Of a stretch of 32,000 nt of DNA, positions 7,853-19,926 are shown piece by piece. Source of the stretch: Candidatus Saccharimonadota bacterium (lineage in GTDB: Bacteria > Patescibacteriota > Patescibacteriia > 2-12-FULL-60-25); contig CP060222.1 of assembly GCA_023898425.1 (NCBI GenBank), positions 810,001 through 842,000 of the forward strand, read 5' to 3'. Made by a program: the position numbers and the translations under genes. How positions within the stretch are numbered: the stretch's first letter is position 1; each line of letters opens with the position of its first letter. The notes under the pieces are model-generated. The model did no database searches. It was not told the origin of the DNA and saw nothing but the letters and a program-made list of their open reading frames with translations.

Positions 7853-10584
7853 GGTGTTTCAAAAAGAATGGCATTAAGTTGGTCTTGCTTCCAAGGAGTT
7901 TCAGTTGCGAGATCCGTATTTGACCAGATTGCCTTCCAGCCTTCTGGCACAGTAATCGTCTGTGTTAGTGAACGCTGTGAACCTGACTGACTCGTCGAGT
8001 TTAACACATACGCAGCATGATGCACTTCGGTTTGTGATGGATACCAGCGCTTTGCTAAATCAAAAGCATTCACTGGTAGCTTATAGCTAATGGTTGTCGT
8101 TGCCGTGTGTCCTGGCTTTAATTGAATCCATCCCCCAAAAGATGTTCTCCCAAACTCATCTGTTGCTACTAAACCGGCTGTCGTTTGACGTTGTCTTTTT
8201 TCGATCTCTGACAAGAAAAGATCGTCACCGTCTTGAGGTAATGGAACTTCAAATAAACTTGTTGTTGGTGCATTAAATCCATCCGCTGATAAAAGAACGG
8301 ATCCTTCTGGTGCATAAAAGCGTACAAACTGTACATTATTCACTCCCGTAAACTCTGCACCTTTGTCAGCAGTGTGCTCACGGACCATGGTTACTGTATC
8401 GGTAATACTTCCGTCTTCTGTAATATGGATATCGTGATGCACGTTCTCATGAATCGCTGCATCAGATTTTTGACCTGCAATATTTGCGCCGATAATCGCT
8501 AGCGCATCACCAATAACGGGTTTTAATTCGCCCGTCCAACCATAACGTGAGAAAACGGATTGCTCAGATTCGCGGGTAAAATAGAGCTGGACGTCTTTTT
8601 CGTTAAGCGCCTTACTCAATCTCTTTAGTAGCTTTGGCTTAAGGGTATTATCGGCCGATAGTACACGCTCAAGTACGAGCGGCAATAAATCACCAATAAT
8701 CTTTTTTGGTTTATTTTCTGATTTGTCGTACTCAACTTCTACCGCACGCTGAAGCTCTTCTCTAAAGCTTTCTGCTGTAAAGACTTTTCCGTATTCTGGC
8801 ATTTCTATCGGGCCGATATCCTCAAGCAATCCTTCCATAAGACCCACATTGAGCACAATCACACCGTCGAGCGTTGGCTGACCAGCATCACTCCAAAAAC
8901 GACGAATATTTTCTGCTGATGCAGAAAAGTCAGGATACCAGTTTGCATCCTGAAACTCCCACCGCGCAGAAACCAACGAGAGTGGTTGAGGAGATTTTAC
9001 ACGTGTTTTTAGTTGCCCTTGTAGGTCGTATGGCCCACCTCCCATCACGTGAACTTGCTTTAAAGAACCACGATCTAAAACCACTTCTGCCATTGAGCCC
9101 ATGAACCCACCGGTTGGTCTTAGCTCTGATGAGTTTTGAAAAATAACGAGATATCTACGTTGGTGGTCTTCTCCAAGGATATTCGGCATGATCTGACTAA
9201 ACTGTCTTACTTCTTGAAGCGCTTTTGACGCTTGCTGTAAGCGGGACTTTAACTCCCCTACCTGTGTACGTTGCGTAGATGGAATCACTGCCATATCAAC
9301 CTGAGACATAGCTTCATTCGCTTTTGCGATACGTTCTTCTACTTGATCAATGTAGGTTGTGAATACTTTTAATCGATCCGTCGGATGACGCGCATCGCGA
9401 GCAAGCGCTGCCTCCGCTCCTTGAGAAAATAAGGCTGCCGCTTGAGACGCTTGTTCGCCCGCATCAAGAAGTGCGCGTGCTGACGCATACGCATTACGTG
9501 TTTGTGGTAATACCTTTGATAAAGCGACAGCTAATACATTTACCTCGTTTAACGCCTTGTCAGAATCGGCAAACCCTTGAGCAGCTTGCTGCCATTGTTC
9601 ACTTGCCTTTTCTGGACTTGTGGCAAGAGCAAGCTCCGTTTTTGCGAGCGTTGATCGACCTTGGGTTTCAATCGTTGTCCAAGATGACTTTGCGGAGCGC
9701 GCCAATGACACAGCGCCCGCAGGCAATGACAATAACAAGGCAAAAACCATAAAACTCGAAACGACCCGCAAATACGAGATACGAGGGACGACAATAGGAA
9801 TATGCCAAGCCTCTTCTGCCTCCGTTAAAATATCCGCCTCTGCAAAATGAATATCGGCTGCTGTAGATGCCGATTTGCTTTTTATATTTGCTAAGAATCC
9901 TTGAAGTCGCTCTGTTAAACGCGCGAACCATGAATCATGGACAACAACCTCTTGATCTACAGACTCGGCAGAAAGTGGCATCGGTATGCTTACTGGCGTA
10001 AGTGATGTCATTCTTACCAATGGCAGTCGTAGACGACTAGAAAAGCTGTTTTGAGCTTCAAACGCATCTTCTGCATCATGCGGTGTGTACTGATCGATCA
10101 GCCAAGTCTCGCGAATTAAAGGAACCTGCAACGCCGTAAGCCCTTCTAAAACCCCCATGTCTGCCGCTGCCTTTGTCGGAGCCTGCCAAGAAGGTGCGTG
10201 CTTCCATGCATCATCCTGAGTAGGCGTCTCAATGCGCTGTGCTATTTTTTTTAAGGTGAGAACATGCTCGCTTGGTTTGTGGGATATGCGCTTTATCTCA
10301 ACAACAGAGGGACGATCATCAACAAATAAAGACTCGAGCAATTCTTGGTCTCTAGAAATAAACGGATCTTGGACAGCGATAGATTCAAATCGACGATTTG
10401 TTCCATTAACACGATCTTCTTTTTTTCGATCGTCAGTATTTACTTGATCATTCGCTATTGATTCGTCAATAACAATAACGCTCTCGAGCTGTGATTCGAG
10501 TTGCTTGCGAAGATTCATCATCTTCCACATTGGCACTTCTGTTTTTTTAGAGCGGGAGCGTGGCATGATACACGAATGTCTCAC
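7849..10584 (-). CDS. DUF4012 domain-containing membrane protein (911 aa)
   Basis: RYLVIFQNSSELRPTGGFMGSMAEV matches the hallmark DUF4012 motif (QNNAELRxTGG, from memory). One TM segment. The start is uncertain: GTG 10584 (GTGA overlap with the glycosyltransferase stop) or ATG 10566. Confidence 0.75.
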   Translation of the reverse strand: MRHSCIMPRSRSKKTEVPMWKMMNLRKQLESQLESVIVIDESIANDQVNTDDRKKEDRVNGTNRRFESIAVQDPFISRDQELLESLFVDDRPSVVEIKRISHKPSEHVLTLKKIAQRIETPTQDDAWKHAPSWQAPTKAAADMGVLEGLTALQVPLIRETWLIDQYTPHDAEDAFEAQNSFSSRLRLPLVRMTSLTPVSIPMPLSAESVDQEVVVHDSWFARLTERLQGFLANIKSKSASTAADIHFAEADILTEAEEAWHIPIVVPRISYLRVVSSFMVFALLLSLPAGAVSLARSAKSSWTTIETQGRSTLAKTELALATSPEKASEQWQQAAQGFADSDKALNEVNVLAVALSKVLPQTRNAYASARALLDAGEQASQAAALFSQGAEAALARDARHPTDRLKVFTTYIDQVEERIAKANEAMSQVDMAVIPSTQRTQVGELKSRLQQASKALQEVRQFSQIMPNILGEDHQRRYLVIFQNSSELRPTGGFMGSMAEVVLDRGSLKQVHVMGGGPYDLQGQLKTRVKSPQPLSLVSARWEFQDANWYPDFSASAENIRRFWSDAGQPTLDGVIVLNVGLMEGLLEDIGPIEMPEYGKVFTAESFREELQRAVEVEYDKSENKPKKIIGDLLPLVLERVLSADNTLKPKLLKRLSKALNEKDVQLYFTRESEQSVFSRYGWTGELKPVIGDALAIIGANIAGQKSDAAIHENVHHDIHITEDGSITDTVTMVREHTADKGAEFTGVNNVQFVRFYAPEGSVLLSADGFNAPTTSLFEVPLPQDGDDLFLSEIEKRQRQTTAGLVATDEFGRTSFGGWIQLKPGHTATTTISYKLPVNAFDLAKRWYPSQTEVHHAAYVLNSTSQSGSQRSLTQTITVPEGWKAIWSNTDLATETPWKQDQLNAILFETP

Positions 10585-11699
10585 CGTTTTGTTTCGTGTT
10601 TTTGAAAAGATTCGATCATGGACTTTGCGGTAAAAGCCCAGCTATGTCGACGGCGGACTTCTTCGCCTCCGAGTAAAGCTTGTGTTCGAGCATCTTCTCC
10701 TTGAACAAGAACGGTTTCGATCGCTCTTATCATACCATCCACGGAACCATTTTCAAAGAAGAAAACGCCTTGCTGCGGGAGCACTTCTTTTAAGACTTCA
10801 ATATCACTAGAAATCACCGGTGTACCTAGCGATAATGCCTCACAAGGGGGCAATCCAAATCCCTCAAAAGACGTCGGAAAGACAAAGGCGCTTGCCTGTG
10901 CATAATAATCAGCCATTTGCTGGTCCGATAATTGACCTGTAAAGATTACCCTTGGCAATCCAAGATCCTCGCAACACTTCATGATTCTATTCATGAACAC
11001 ATCTTTTTCGCCGCCAACAATCAATGTGAGCTCAGGGTGATTTATTGAAATAACTTGCCACATATCCAACAACAATTCTAAACGCTTATGCGGATAAGCT
11101 GATCCGACATAAAAGAGAAATGGTGTAGGAAAGATTCTTTCTTGTTGAGGTTGTGGCAACGAAGATAGTCCCTCGCCATTTACCAATATTTTATGCTCTA
11201 CGCTTTTATCAAAAGAACACAAATCTTTCTTTACGGCTTGTGTTGGTACAAAAATCGTTTGTGATTTCCGTATGGCGTTTTTTAAGACAAGATAAAACCC
11301 CACTCTCTTAAGCCAAGCGACCATGGGATGACGTGTAGAAGCTTTGGCGCTTTGTGGCTGGTGCACCAATAACAAATCATGAATCGTTATAGAAAATTTT
11401 CCTCGAAAAAACAAAGGAACATTCCAATGCGGAAACCAAACATGATCTGCATCAATCTCCTTTACGATACGCGGCAATAGCAGCTGCTCTTTTAATCCGT
11501 ACCAAGAGAAATCCGCTTTTTTAAAAACAATATTCGACGCATGAAAAGAAGTGTTTTCAGGATCACGAACGAGCAAGGTAAATGTCCAATCAGGTTGCTG
11601 AGTGGCGAGTTGCTTTACCGTCTCTTCAATATAACGGCCTATCCCTCTTGTTTTACCCGCGCCCATCATCCGAGCATCGATTGCGATATGCATAGCCAT
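10581..11699 (-). CDS. glycosyltransferase family 1 fold (GT4-type), 372 aa
   Basis: N-terminus IAIDARMMGAGKTRGIGRYI and C-terminal EGFGLPPCEALSLGTPVISSD (EX7E motif). Confidence 0.85.
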   Translation of the reverse strand: MAMHIAIDARMMGAGKTRGIGRYIEETVKQLATQQPDWTFTLLVRDPENTSFHASNIVFKKADFSWYGLKEQLLLPRIVKEIDADHVWFPHWNVPLFFRGKFSITIHDLLLVHQPQSAKASTRHPMVAWLKRVGFYLVLKNAIRKSQTIFVPTQAVKKDLCSFDKSVEHKILVNGEGLSSLPQPQQERIFPTPFLFYVGSAYPHKRLELLLDMWQVISINHPELTLIVGGEKDVFMNRIMKCCEDLGLPRVIFTGQLSDQQMADYYAQASAFVFPTSFEGFGLPPCEALSLGTPVISSDIEVLKEVLPQQGVFFFENGSVDGMIRAIETVLVQGEDARTQALLGGEEVRRRHSWAFTAKSMIESFQKHETKR

Positions 11700-18233: not shown

Positions 18234-18273
18234 AAAACCACTTATTGACAAAATAGGTGGTTTTTGCTACTAT
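18234..18273 (+). promoter_or_regulatory. rnc terminator hairpin whose loop carries the -35 of the next promoter: TTGACA (18245-18250), 17 nt, TACTAT (18268-18273)
   Basis: AAAACCACTTAT-TGACAAA-ATAGGTGGTTTTT. The 12-mer ATTGACAAAATA lies at 18244-18255. Confidence 0.6.
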
Positions 18274-18355
18274 GTCTGGGCATTTCAAAGGCACTGTTGC
18301 TTTTGCGATACGTTCTTCCACATATAAAGGAGGCCGGCAATAGCCGGTAAGGTAC

Positions 18356-19234
18356 ATGAACGACACGAACAACTCCGCCCTGAGCCTGACCAGCATCGAA
18401 AACCGCAAGGCCGCCCTCGAGGCGCGAGCAGAAGAGCTCAAGCAGAAGAAGCTCAGCGCCATCCAGAAGGCGCTGCAGCCGCCGCCCCCGAAGGTCATCC
18501 CGAAGCCTGCACCACCCAAGATGGTGAAGTGCAAGGATGAGGAATGTCAGCTCGAAGGAGGGCTCTTCGTGCCCGCCAAGGCGAGCTACAAGATCTGTCC
18601 GGCCTGCGCTCGGCGTAGGCAGGAGATCGCCAAGGCCAAGCGCGAAGAAGAGCGCAAGGCCAAAGAGGAGCTCCGCAAGCTCGAGAAGGATCTCGAGAAG
18701 CAAGAGCAGCTCCTGCAAGACTTCGAGGCTGGCAACGGCAAGGCGCTTCTCTGCGTCACGCCGGGCTGCGAAACAATCGAGGCCCCAGGCAAGGGGTACA
18801 ACCCCGACTGGGAGTTCCACTGCTTCAAGTGCCGGGAGGAATTCCGGCAGAAGAGGCATCTGATGCCGAAAGCGGCTCCCTGGAGCACGCCGGCGCAGCA
18901 GGCCGCGCCTCCTATCAAGCCCAAGAAGGAGCTCTCGGAGACTCAGGCCCGCAAGGACCTGAAGGCTTCGGCCGCCGAGGCCTACATCGCGGGCAACCCG
19001 TTGCCCGCCGGTGTCACGATGCACCATCAGGTCGATCGTCAGATCATCCTGAAGTTCGTGGGCGAGAACGGTGAGAAGGACTTCTTCCACAAGTTCTTCT
19101 TGCCCATCGGCGACGAAGAGAAGCGTGCCAACAAGGCCGCTTCCAACAAGCGGCGCCTCGAGAATCGGCAGCGCATCGCCGATGAGCCCAAGGGCTCGAA
19201 GAAGGACGCCAAGAACAAGGGCAAGCGGAAGTAG
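18356..19234 (+). CDS. hypothetical Lys-rich protein with two C-x4-C-x16/17-C-x2-C zinc-ribbon modules (292 aa), encoded at anomalously high GC
   Basis: Own promoter, AAAGGAGG, and terminator. Cys motifs CKDEEC..CPAC and CVTPGC..CFKC. 53 of the first 60 codons end in G/C. 40 AAG against 2 AAA. Confidence 0.8.
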   Translation: MNDTNNSALSLTSIENRKAALEARAEELKQKKLSAIQKALQPPPPKVIPKPAPPKMVKCKDEECQLEGGLFVPAKASYKICPACARRRQEIAKAKREEERKAKEELRKLEKDLEKQEQLLQDFEAGNGKALLCVTPGCETIEAPGKGYNPDWEFHCFKCREEFRQKRHLMPKAAPWSTPAQQAAPPIKPKKELSETQARKDLKASAAEAYIAGNPLPAGVTMHHQVDRQIILKFVGENGEKDFFHKFFLPIGDEEKRANKAASNKRRLENRQRIADEPKGSKKDAKNKGKRK

Positions 19235-19263
19235 CCTCCTACTCCCCACCCTATTACCTACCT

Positions 19264-19306
19264 GAACCCGCTCGACATCACTGTCTTGAGCGGGTTCTTT
19301 ATTTTC
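19264..19306 (+). terminator. intrinsic terminator of the GC-rich gene
   Basis: GAACCCGCTC (19264-19273) pairs with GAGCGGGTTC (19288-19297), followed by TTTATTTT. Confidence 0.75.
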
Positions 19307-19412
19307 TCATATTTTTACAATAGCCTATTGACCATCCTCTCAAAACATCGTAGCGTCGATTTTGTTCGATACCGAACCTTATCGTCATACATCCAAAGAG
19401 GCACGGTAAATC

Positions 19413-19730
19413 ATGGGAGATCTTGGCGAAATTCGCTGCAGCAATAACACTTGCAGACAATTCCATTCTCCAAAAAAACTTCTACCGAACGGAAAAAGCT
19501 ACTGCAATTTGTGCAGAAGAAAACACTTTCAAGCGAAATCACCAACACATCGTACACAAACCCTTGCGACGCCAATTGACCTCTACATAGAAGCAGTGAA
19601 GCGACTTATCGAACTCAGTATGCCGCTACCATCAGACGTCATCTATACATATGATCCGCTGACACGCCGTGGTCATATCAAAATCGACAGCGAGTCCTTT
19701 GGTAGAGCAGAATCACCTTTTAATCCCTGA
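19413..19730 (+). CDS. hypothetical single zinc-ribbon protein (105 aa), paralog of the GC-rich gene at native GC
   Basis: CSNNTC-x16-CNLCRRKHFQ has the same spacing and flank as the two modules in 18356-19234. C-terminal PLPSDV..IKID resembles PLPAGV..LKFV. Confidence 0.7.
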   Translation: MGDLGEIRCSNNTCRQFHSPKKLLPNGKSYCNLCRRKHFQAKSPTHRTQTLATPIDLYIEAVKRLIELSMPLPSDVIYTYDPLTRRGHIKIDSESFGRAESPFNP

Positions 19731-19738
19731 TATTTCTC

Positions 19739-19766
19739 TCCCCGTTTTGATGACGGGGATTTTGTT
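19739..19766 (+). terminator. intrinsic terminator
   Basis: TCCCCGT-TTTGATG-ACGGGGA followed by TTTTG. Confidence 0.65.
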
Positions 19767-19770
19767 ATCA

Positions 19771-19798
19771 AAAAACCACCTAATAGGTGGTTTTTTGC
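19771..19798. terminator. bidirectional terminator hairpin abutting the tRNA-Arg 3' end
   Basis: AAAAAACCACCT-AAT-AGGTGGTTTTTT. Near-identical arms to the hairpin at 18234-18266. Confidence 0.7.
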
Positions 19799-19799
19799 G

Positions 19800-19874
19800 T
19801 GGTACGCCCAGAGGGAATCGAACCCCCATAACCGGTTCCGAAGACCGGGACTTTATCCGTTAAGCTATAGGCGC
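19800..19874 (-). tRNA. tRNA-Arg (anticodon UCG), CCA encoded
   Basis: Hand fold: acceptor GCGCCUA/UGGGCGU (two G-U pairs), anticodon arm CCGGU-CUUCGGA-ACCGG, T arm GGGGG-UUCGAUU-CCCUC. 75 nt. Confidence 0.8.
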
Positions 19875-19926
19875 GTTTAAACGTGCGCAGAGCGTATAGG
19901 TTTTTTACGGTTTCATCAAGCGAGAT

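Follow-up and report, generated by a model that had tools for sequence, protein, structure and literature searches.

Are two neighbouring genes with cysteine modules, one at about 60% GC and the other at about 43%, members of a single protein family, and how could adjacent relatives come to differ so widely in composition? This question is raised by a segment of contig CP060222.1 (assembly GCA_023898425.1) of a Candidatus Saccharimonadota bacterium, which we analysed within a stretch of 32,000 nucleotides (positions 810,001 to 842,000 of the contig), hereafter the window. Unannotated genes abound in genomes of the candidate phyla radiation (CPR), and orphan families are common there. The two genes, termed A and B, very probably represent an undescribed, clade-restricted and modular family of zinc-ribbon proteins; what had been an orphan CPR gene can thereby be assigned to a defined family, for which a domain map, three architectural types and a constant genomic position are given. 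The sequence-only reading that drew attention to the pair had not recognised the family, and indeed no described family was matched in the sequence or structure libraries searched. The genes are as follows:

18356 to 19234, plus strand: gene A, type 1 family member, open reading frame (ORF) of 292 amino acids (aa), with an N-terminal helix, Pro-rich linker, ribbon 1, charged helix, ribbon 2, disordered linker, alpha+beta domain, basic helix and Lys tail in this order
19413 to 19730, plus strand: gene B, type 3 family member, ORF of 105 aa, GC content at third codon positions (GC3) 0.40

The family is defined in the first place by its Cys4 modules, three of which are present in the window, two in A and one in B, with exactly the sequences first reported:

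18530 to 18607, plus strand: zinc-ribbon module 1 of A, residues 59-84, CKDEECQLEGGLFVPAKASYKICPAC, short-loop subtype with F-x-P-x-K
18752 to 18832, plus strand: zinc-ribbon module 2 of A, residues 133-159, CVTPGCETIEAPGKGYNPDWEFHCFKC, long-loop subtype
19437 to 19514, plus strand: zinc-ribbon module of B (its ribbon 2), residues 9-34, CSNNTCRQFHSPKKLLPNGKSYCNLC

All 12 Cys residues of the two proteins (8 in A, 4 in B) lie inside these modules. Six-frame ORFs of the window contain the pattern C-x4-C-x16/17-C-x2-C three times, each time in A or B, where about 0.002 occurrences would be expected by chance; in 568,196 six-frame ORF residues of other loci it is found five times, two of these five being family members. 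Similarly, a hidden Markov model (HMM) of the module recovered 15 modules in seven family proteins and nothing else significant among 4,790 ORFs of 81 sources (domain E-values 2e-10 for ribbon 1 and 3.7e-12 for ribbon 2 of A). The four Cys are kept in all 14 aligned modules, and those of ribbon 1 of A are invariant among strains and relatives; ribbon 2 of the homologue P0005, which lies outside this alignment, reads C-x4-C...C-x2-H, with His at the final ligand position. Two subtypes can be distinguished, one with a short loop and F-x-P-x-K, the other with a long loop that usually contains His and [FY]-x-G-x2-S (H-x(n)-[FY]-x-G-x2-S), and BLASTP pairs ribbon 2 of A with the module of B. Two generalisations drawn from A and B hold for these proteins but do not extend to their relatives: the common Cys spacing, since the first pair may be C-x2-C, C-x4-C or C-x6-C there, and the flank ending in Q after the last Cys, which is not conserved. 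In AlphaFold2 models, ribbon 1 of A shows strands at 56-60, 63-66 and 70-73 with a predicted local distance difference test (pLDDT) score of only about 55, the fold of ribbon 2 is unmodelled (pLDDT below 50), and the ribbon of B reaches 65-76. Each Cys4 module would bind one zinc ion.

Direct comparisons of A with B are not significant (BLASTP E 0.018; profile of the A group against B alone E 0.081), and the link between them therefore depends on homologues in related genomes. When these are included, hhalign of the A-group against the B-group profile gives 94% probability and E 1.4e-7 over 143 columns, which take in the two ribbons, the linker and the beginning of the C-terminal domain, and comparison of B with the type 3 profile yields 90.5% probability and E 1.4e-6. 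The suspected homology of A and B is thus borne out by profile-profile similarity, and so is the alleged likeness of their C-terminal parts: hhalign pairs AEAYIAGNPLPAGVTMHHQV with KRLIELSMPLPSDVIYTYDP, and the AlphaFold2 models agree, with a helix followed by three strands in the C-terminal domain of both proteins. Outside the ribbons the following parts can be delimited:

18608 to 18727, plus strand: charged K/E-rich helix of A, about 40 residues (85-124), putative coiled coil or oligomerisation element
18944 to 19111, plus strand: alpha+beta domain of A (residues 197-252), one helix and three strands, common to type 3 proteins and B
19572 to 19721, plus strand: alpha+beta domain of B (residues 54-103)
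19112 to 19231, plus strand: basic helix KRANKAASNKRRLENRQR and Lys-rich tail KGSKKDAKNKGKRK of A, residues 253-292, net charge +9

The homologues come from three relatives of the window genome, designated here by the loci L013, L012 and L092 and labelled Uhrbacteria, Magasanikbacteria or similar. A genome scan with the adjacent RNase III places the host of the window among the Patescibacteria (CPR), and the NCBI label of this species is Magasanikbacteria or Nomurabacteria. Searches with phmmer and tblastn connect A to three L013 genes (218, 305 and 293 aa), and these to two L012 genes (271 and 298 aa). P0005 (300 aa), from the fourth genome, L092, was added when 1.84 billion representative proteins were searched exhaustively with HMMER; it occupies the same position and is 49% identical to A (E 3e-51). 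In this library L013_218 matches A at E 9e-6. In all four genomes the family sits in the gap between the gene for RNase III and a tRNA gene:

19800 to 19874, minus strand: tRNA-Arg(TCG), found by ARAGORN and Rfam, right-hand landmark of the variable gap

RNase III and tRNA-Arg are still neighbours in distant relatives and outgroups, with unrelated cargo or nothing between them, and the locus is therefore regarded as a variable tRNA-adjacent gap occupied by this family in one small clade. Beyond that clade, no homologue was found in the searches of 5.8 billion or 1.84 billion proteins: word-indexed searches of the larger set with A and B returned only the proteins themselves, while a metagenome scan and two viral contig scans, in which A alone and the type 1 alignment served as queries, returned only one more contig of the same species. 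Three architectural types were recognised:

Type 1: A, P0005 and L013_218; basic helix and Lys tail present, alpha+beta domain present
Type 2: L013_305 and L012_271, with 3-4 ribbons; basic helix and Lys tail present, alpha+beta domain absent
Type 3: L013_293, L012_298 (= P0003/P0004) and B; basic helix and Lys tail absent, alpha+beta domain present

MAFFT alignments of A with P0003/P0004 mispaired the ribbons and were left out of structure prediction.

Of the two origins first proposed for the pair, paralogs or xenologs, old paralogous types are favoured, because types 1, 2 and 3 already coexist in the relatives; a recent tandem duplication is disfavoured, and the composition of A was probably imported within the clade (see below). 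B occupies the type 3 slot, the last before tRNA-Arg, and keeps ribbon 2 and the alpha+beta domain. Since the type 3 promoter and start context are retained and the N-terminal coiled coil, ribbon 1 and linker are missing, B is a type 3 gene that kept its promoter and start codon and lost some 170-190 N-terminal residues by an internal in-frame deletion. The family as a whole evolves by birth and death of the three types, and it evolves fast: A and P0005 are 49% identical where the RNase III proteins are 91% identical.

A family of this kind presupposes that A is a gene at all, for which the opposite strand offers a competitor:

18242 to 19249, minus strand: shadow ORF of 335 aa overlapping gene A; not a gene

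If this antisense frame were the real gene, the Cys modules would be an accident of the frame opposite to it. It is longer than gene A, gene callers chose its strand in 6 of the 7 public assemblies covering gene A, and its 335-aa product is on record on 7 contigs. Eleven contigs of the same species, belonging to two lineages with about 94% identity, served for comparison with the window. Substitutions in gene A number 25, 23 and 49 at codon positions 1, 2 and 3 of the plus frame (ratio of nonsynonymous to synonymous divergence, dN/dS, 0.33), a peak that would fall on the first position of the antisense frame. Indels keep the plus frame, whereas the antisense ORF varies in length among strains (282, 335 or 340 aa in L002-L008). 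The Cys residues are invariant among the strains, and their positions are kept in relatives at 26-49% identity; moreover, promoter, Shine-Dalgarno sequence (SD) and terminators are all on the plus strand. The antisense frame is open because gene A uses no TTA, CTA or TCA codons. An antisense gene is hence ruled out by the substitution pattern, the indels and the expression signals, and as an explanation of the locus we find it barely credible; by the same evidence A is the gene. In gene B, substitutions number 0, 0 and 4 at the three positions (dN 0), and B is under strong constraint. Both A and B are real genes of the plus strand. The NCBI annotation calls gene A correctly, as a hypothetical protein, and takes an internal codon as the start of gene B, so that the predicted product of 73 aa has its zinc ribbon cut; most public calls for gene A are on the wrong strand and hide the family from protein databases. 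In one contig (L093, ERZ795053) the stop codon TGA of gene B reads TGG, and the resulting protein, P0013, has 155 aa and runs into the tRNA-Arg region; this read-through could reflect either an error in sequencing or genuine variation.

Given two real and related genes, they could still be highly diverged members of a described zinc-finger family, such as DksA/TraR, the RecO zinc motif, HypA, IBR or DUF7564. The family has no significant match in Pfam, NCBIfam, PHROGs or PADLOC, nor do three of its profiles among PDB sequences, and Foldseek against PDB and BFVD gave no match at E ≤0.001. There are sub-threshold matches to DUF7564 (17.7 bits, cut-off 32.2), RecO (15.7 bits, cut-off 48.7), IBR (7.5-12 bits) and HypA (E 0.24), and in the distant locus L065 a DksA/TraR-like gene follows RNase III. 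All of these matches, however, fall short of the curated cut-offs and extend over only 25-45 residues with a generic Cys4 pattern (those to DUF7564, RecO, IBR, HypA and DZR a single generic ribbon each), and none of the families has the order of ribbon, helix, ribbon, alpha+beta domain and basic tail. Membership in a described family is accordingly very improbable. In particular, DksA/TraR (PF01258) gave no match at E ≤10 for A or B, nor at E ≤1 for nine members scanned; DUF7564 (PF24445, gathering threshold 32.2 bits) none for A or B, the best being P0004 at 17.7 and L013_218 at 14.9 bits with one ribbon each; and IBR/RING (PF01485, cut-off 24.3 bits) only 7.5 bits for A and 12.2 for L013_293, with TRIM RING chains of the PDB at E 0.18. 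Among phage and defence families, the best PHROG reached E 0.005 over a coiled-coil stretch and the best PADLOC family E 0.027. Three leads were dropped: RecO, suggested by rnc-era-recO synteny (TIGR00613, 48.7 bits), where L013_305 alone matched at 15.7 bits over a generic ribbon of 29 residues; the C-terminal domain of HPF and YkuJ as look-alikes of B in Foldseek (E 1.8-2.8, probability ≤0.23, low-confidence model); and the AMPK-beta and E2 matches of A (E ≥0.1, template modelling score about 0.1). A literature search found nothing on the family or on codon anomalies in CPR genomes.

The comparison with known systems nevertheless shows where likeness ends. With generic Cys4 ribbons (rubredoxin-like knuckle pairs, such as DZR_2 PF18912, A2L_zn_ribbon PF08792 and DUF7564 PF24445) the family shares C-x2-6-C and C-x2-C with 13-17 residues between them, short beta strands predicted around ribbon 1 by AlphaFold2, and repetition in one chain as in double zinc ribbons; it differs in reaching none of their cut-offs, in its own loop signatures and in extra domains which these families lack. 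With DksA/TraR it has in common a long charged helix beside a Cys4 module, a small basic protein and the slot in L065, but the order is reversed (ribbon, then helix), the spacing is another one, and there are at least two ribbons, an alpha+beta domain and a Lys tail. Basic tails rich in Lys and Pro are known from bacterial histone-like proteins (H1-like AlgP, Hc1 and the HupB C-terminus). Their Lys/Pro-rich segments and high isoelectric point (pI; overall 9.3-9.8 here) are shared, whereas the tails of the family are short and attached to zinc ribbons.

What the proteins do may be approached through the parts around the ribbons. The Pro-rich linker, charged helix and Lys-rich tail of A are all present as first described. 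In the AlphaFold2 model of A the helix at 82-124 (pLDDT about 70-83), the alpha+beta domain (about 75-83) and the basic helix at 253-276 (about 79-89) are the better parts. The basic helix and Lys tail are conserved in types 1 and 2, with a tail net charge of +7 to +10, and absent from type 3; pI values in the family range from 8.6 to 9.8, and there are Lys/Pro-rich segments of low complexity (PPPPKVIPKPAPPK, IKPKK, KGSKKDAKNKGKRK). The basic helix KRANKAASNKRRLE (A residues 256-269; 19112-19180) fits 13 of 14 positions of the bZIP basic-region signature, PROSITE PS00036, a lead only; no leucine zipper follows this helix, and no bZIP match was found in Pfam. On these features the long charged helices would mediate oligomerisation, the basic helix, Lys tail and Pro/Lys linkers would bind nucleic acid, and the alpha+beta domain, which varies between strains, would recognise a partner. 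A nucleic-acid-binding role of the family is a tentative proposal. It has to be set against the lack of significant remote homology behind zinc binding, oligomerisation or nucleic-acid binding, and against the AlphaFold2 confidence, which is low to moderate for the whole models (pLDDT 62.5 for A and 70 for B).

Gene A also varies between strains. Two short tracts, about 30% divergent, break otherwise near-identical A alleles. The first, in strain L001 (18318-18400 against L001 178-260), comprises 85 nucleotides (nt) with the ribosome-binding site and the first 15 codons, shows 27 differences and two 3-nt indels, and is probably a short import from an unsampled allele. The second covers the alpha+beta domain, with dN 0.32 and dS 0.49 between lineages against dN 0-0.1 elsewhere, and makes this domain the most variable part of A, whereas B is invariant; strain L008 is a recombinant that carries the alpha+beta allele of the other lineage on its own backbone. 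Such a pattern might be expected if the family were a conflict or host-interaction module, for example a secreted effector or an anti-phage or anti-defence factor of an episymbiont, whose alpha+beta domain tracks a target and whose basic C-terminus is an export signal. The family is clade-restricted, fast-evolving and subject to tandem birth and death, its hypervariable domain forms mosaic alleles, and it resides in a tRNA-adjacent variable gap. By eye, however, there is no obvious hydrophobic N-terminal segment that could serve as signal peptide or anchor; no secretion, toxin or defence genes were found in the neighbourhood, PADLOC and PHROGs gave no significant match, the two viral contig scans yielded no relative, and dN/dS stays below 1 even in the variable patch (0.65). 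We therefore consider such a module quite unlikely.

The genes are surrounded by a dense set of regulatory elements:

18234 to 18265, plus strand: intrinsic-terminator hairpin 3' of RNase III, 12-bp stem and 7-nt loop with TTGACA, followed by a U-run
18245 to 18273, plus strand: sigma-70-type promoter of gene A, TTGACA, 17 nt, TACTAT, with TG before the -10 box (extended -10)
18327 to 18348, plus strand: SD AAGGAGG (18327-18333), 21 nt before the ATG, and between them a 6-bp hairpin (18333-18348)
19264 to 19305, plus strand: intrinsic terminator of gene A, -22.2 kcal/mol, z -7.2, followed by a U-run
19327 to 19355, plus strand: promoter of gene B, TTGACC, 17 nt, TAGCGT
19739 to 19797, unstranded: two hairpins between B and tRNA-Arg, the terminator of B (19739-19759) with a T-run and a 14-bp palindrome (19769-19797)

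The first hairpin (-15.2 kcal/mol, z -4.9) carries the -35 box of gene A in its loop, and a hairpin of this design lies upstream of all five type 1/2 genes in the four genomes:

Window, 18234 to 18273: -35-in-loop hairpin
L092, 2632 to 2662: -35-in-loop hairpin
L013, 6756 to 6786 and 7623 to 7653: -35-in-loop hairpins, duplicated along with the gene
L012, 1621 to 1651: -35-in-loop hairpin

In six sequences all 72 of 72 cells of the stem are paired, four pairs with compensatory changes. G-U pairs occur and A-C pairs do not, from which we conclude that the structure is an RNA terminator hairpin of the plus strand. Scans of the rest of the window and of about 30 other loci found no further copy. 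A terminator hairpin that holds the -35 box of the next gene is a compact regulatory design, here with covariation support. The gene A promoter agrees with the consensus at 10 of 12 positions, and in L092, L013 (two copies) and L012 the -35 box is invariant and the position of the -10 box conserved. The hairpin next to the SD of A (-11.4 kcal/mol, z -3.6) is kept in L001 through a change of C-G to U-G, and an arrangement of SD, hairpin of 6-7 bp and AUG, with the SD about 20 nt upstream, recurs with different sequence before P0005 and the type 3 genes L012_298 and L013_293:

Window, 18327 to 18358: SD-hairpin-AUG
L092, about 2735 to 2767: SD-hairpin-AUG
L012, about 2566 to 2596: SD-hairpin-AUG
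L013, about 8728 to 8761: SD-hairpin-AUG

This arrangement may shorten the effective spacing or regulate translation. Gene A is transcribed from a near-consensus promoter that has its -35 box inside the loop of the preceding terminator hairpin, and it is translated from the SD-hairpin-AUG site. For gene B, TTGAC and GTAGC(G/T)TC prove conserved when its upstream region is aligned with those of L012_298 and L013_293, and the start context ATCATGGG is common to L013_293. The palindrome before the tRNA gene is a perfect one of 14 bp and represents the terminator of tRNA-Arg.

There remains the second half of the question, the composition of A. The contrast between the neighbours is as first noted (62.0% GC in A, 44.3% in B), and GC amounts to 0.63 at 18401-19200 against about 0.45 elsewhere in the window. 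The GC3 of A is 0.850, while the 26 other genes of the window average 0.389 (standard deviation 0.041; z = 11.3); GC at first and second codon positions (GC1, GC2) is ordinary, and the anomaly is purely synonymous. Codon preferences are inverted: AAG accounts for 95% in A against 37%, and TTC for 100% against 20%. In the relatives the type 1/2 genes have GC3 values of 0.79, 0.85, 0.83 and 0.94 next to housekeeping genes at 0.50-0.67, whereas type 3 genes, B included, follow the background (0.70, 0.57 and 0.40). The compared stretches have 45% GC here and 53-56% in the closest relatives, and every other shared gene of the window genome falls below its counterparts in L013, L012 and L092 by 0.1-0.4 in GC3, including a neighbouring gene for a protein of 412-424 aa that falls from about 0.8 in the relatives to 0.44-0.46. 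This indicates a lineage-wide shift towards AT in the window genome. We favour the explanation that the A allele was imported from a GC-richer member of the clade: B would be the resident copy, AT-shifted like the rest of the genome, and A would have entered, or re-entered, the genome through homologous replacement after the shift. The mosaic tracts in gene A, which show that it has recombined with divergent alleles, are consistent with such an import.

As in horizontally acquired atypical genes, the codon usage of A lies outside the range of its genome, the gap is variable and adjacent to a tRNA gene, and there are signs of recombination. It differs from them in that neither mobility genes nor an external donor were found, that its homologues stand at the same locus with a conserved promoter, syntenic within the four-genome clade and too few for a tree, and that its atypical composition stops exactly at the borders of the coding sequence.

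The alternative is that A was inherited vertically and that a gene-specific force holds its GC3 against the AT drift of the rest of the genome. This force could be selection on the mRNA, for its stability or structure or against A-runs in a gene rich in Lys and Glu, or else a recombination hot spot with GC-biased gene conversion. Several observations tell in its favour and, in part, against import. In each of the four genomes, irrespective of background, the type 1/2 genes rank at or near the top in GC3 (0.85 in A; 0.94, 0.79, 0.85 and 0.83 in the relatives). The upstream hairpin and the synteny are conserved, which is equally compatible with simple vertical descent, and recombination tracts are evident within the gene. 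Among the alleles sampled there is no donor; the nearest homologue is only 49% identical. Outside one patch, dS between the strain lineages is 0.16-0.34, like that of the flanking genes, and A therefore predates the lineage split. Both lineages have nearly the same GC3 in A (0.850 and 0.854) though 17% of third positions differ, and of the 22 third-position differences in the variable patch 11 are C-G transversions, as also fits a force holding G/C. On the other side, the rise in GC ends exactly at the ends of the coding sequence and spares GC1 and GC2, and the GC3-rich neighbour of 412-424 aa did drop in this genome. Translational selection for G/C-ending codons was rejected, as the gene for ribosomal protein L32 is GC3-rich in no genome examined. 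The polarised recent third-position changes in A, five from GC to AT and one from AT to GC, fit slow decay more than maintenance, although their number is tiny. Finally, effects of GC-biased gene conversion reported for bacteria lie far below a gap of 45 points in GC3. Maintenance is thus a doubtful explanation but a serious competitor, and import remains the preferred one. A bolder combination, in which type 1/2 genes are held at GC3 0.8-0.94 (backgrounds 0.39-0.65), the family is a conflict or host-interaction module and the regulatory cassette is co-duplicated with each copy, appears unlikely. The full explanation given here, i.e. the family together with the proposed function and the import of A, we regard as evenly poised between right and wrong. 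With a GC3 of 0.85 in a genome of 0.39 and equally extreme homologues at the same locus, A offers a clean natural test case of allele import against gene-specific maintenance.

Several further peculiarities of the locus deserve mention. A perfect direct repeat of 14 nt, AATAGGTGGTTTTT, flanks the A-B pair at 18252-18265 and 19782-19795. Each copy forms the 3' arm of a hairpin, and the two hairpins are alike only in the window genome; one possibility is that the repeat arose from a deletion between hairpin copies. A mobile cassette bounded by the repeat was rejected, the left copy being the 3' arm of the family hairpin and the right one part of the tRNA terminator, and the repeat was not taken as an att site. 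An integron-like attC reading of the hairpins was likewise discarded: there is no integrase, the element is as short as 31 nt, and its G-U pairs agree with an RNA terminator.

The segment from 19235 to 19900, with B, its upstream region and tRNA-Arg, diverges by about 1% between the strain lineages against 5-11% in its flanks, and dS in B is 0.059 against 0.2-0.35 in neighbouring genes. This suggests a recent exchange between the lineages or constraint at the nucleotide level; an Rfam scan of the whole window found its four tRNAs only, and at 19235-19900 nothing beyond the tRNA.

On the far side of tRNA-Arg, the ORF of 201 aa at 19992-20597 matches only the N-terminal half of the 412-424 aa protein of the relatives (L013 10825-12099, L012 3730-4968). 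The C-terminal half, which by eye resembles a hexapeptide-repeat acyltransferase, is missing here, and the ORF is either a truncated gene or a pseudogene. In L013, at 9700-10700, the type 3 gene is followed by a fragment of the tRNA-Arg 3' end (GCGTGGTACGTCC), then by an ORF for a membrane protein of 223 aa on the minus strand and then by an intact tRNA-Arg, which looks like an insertion at the 3' end of the tRNA gene that duplicated this end.

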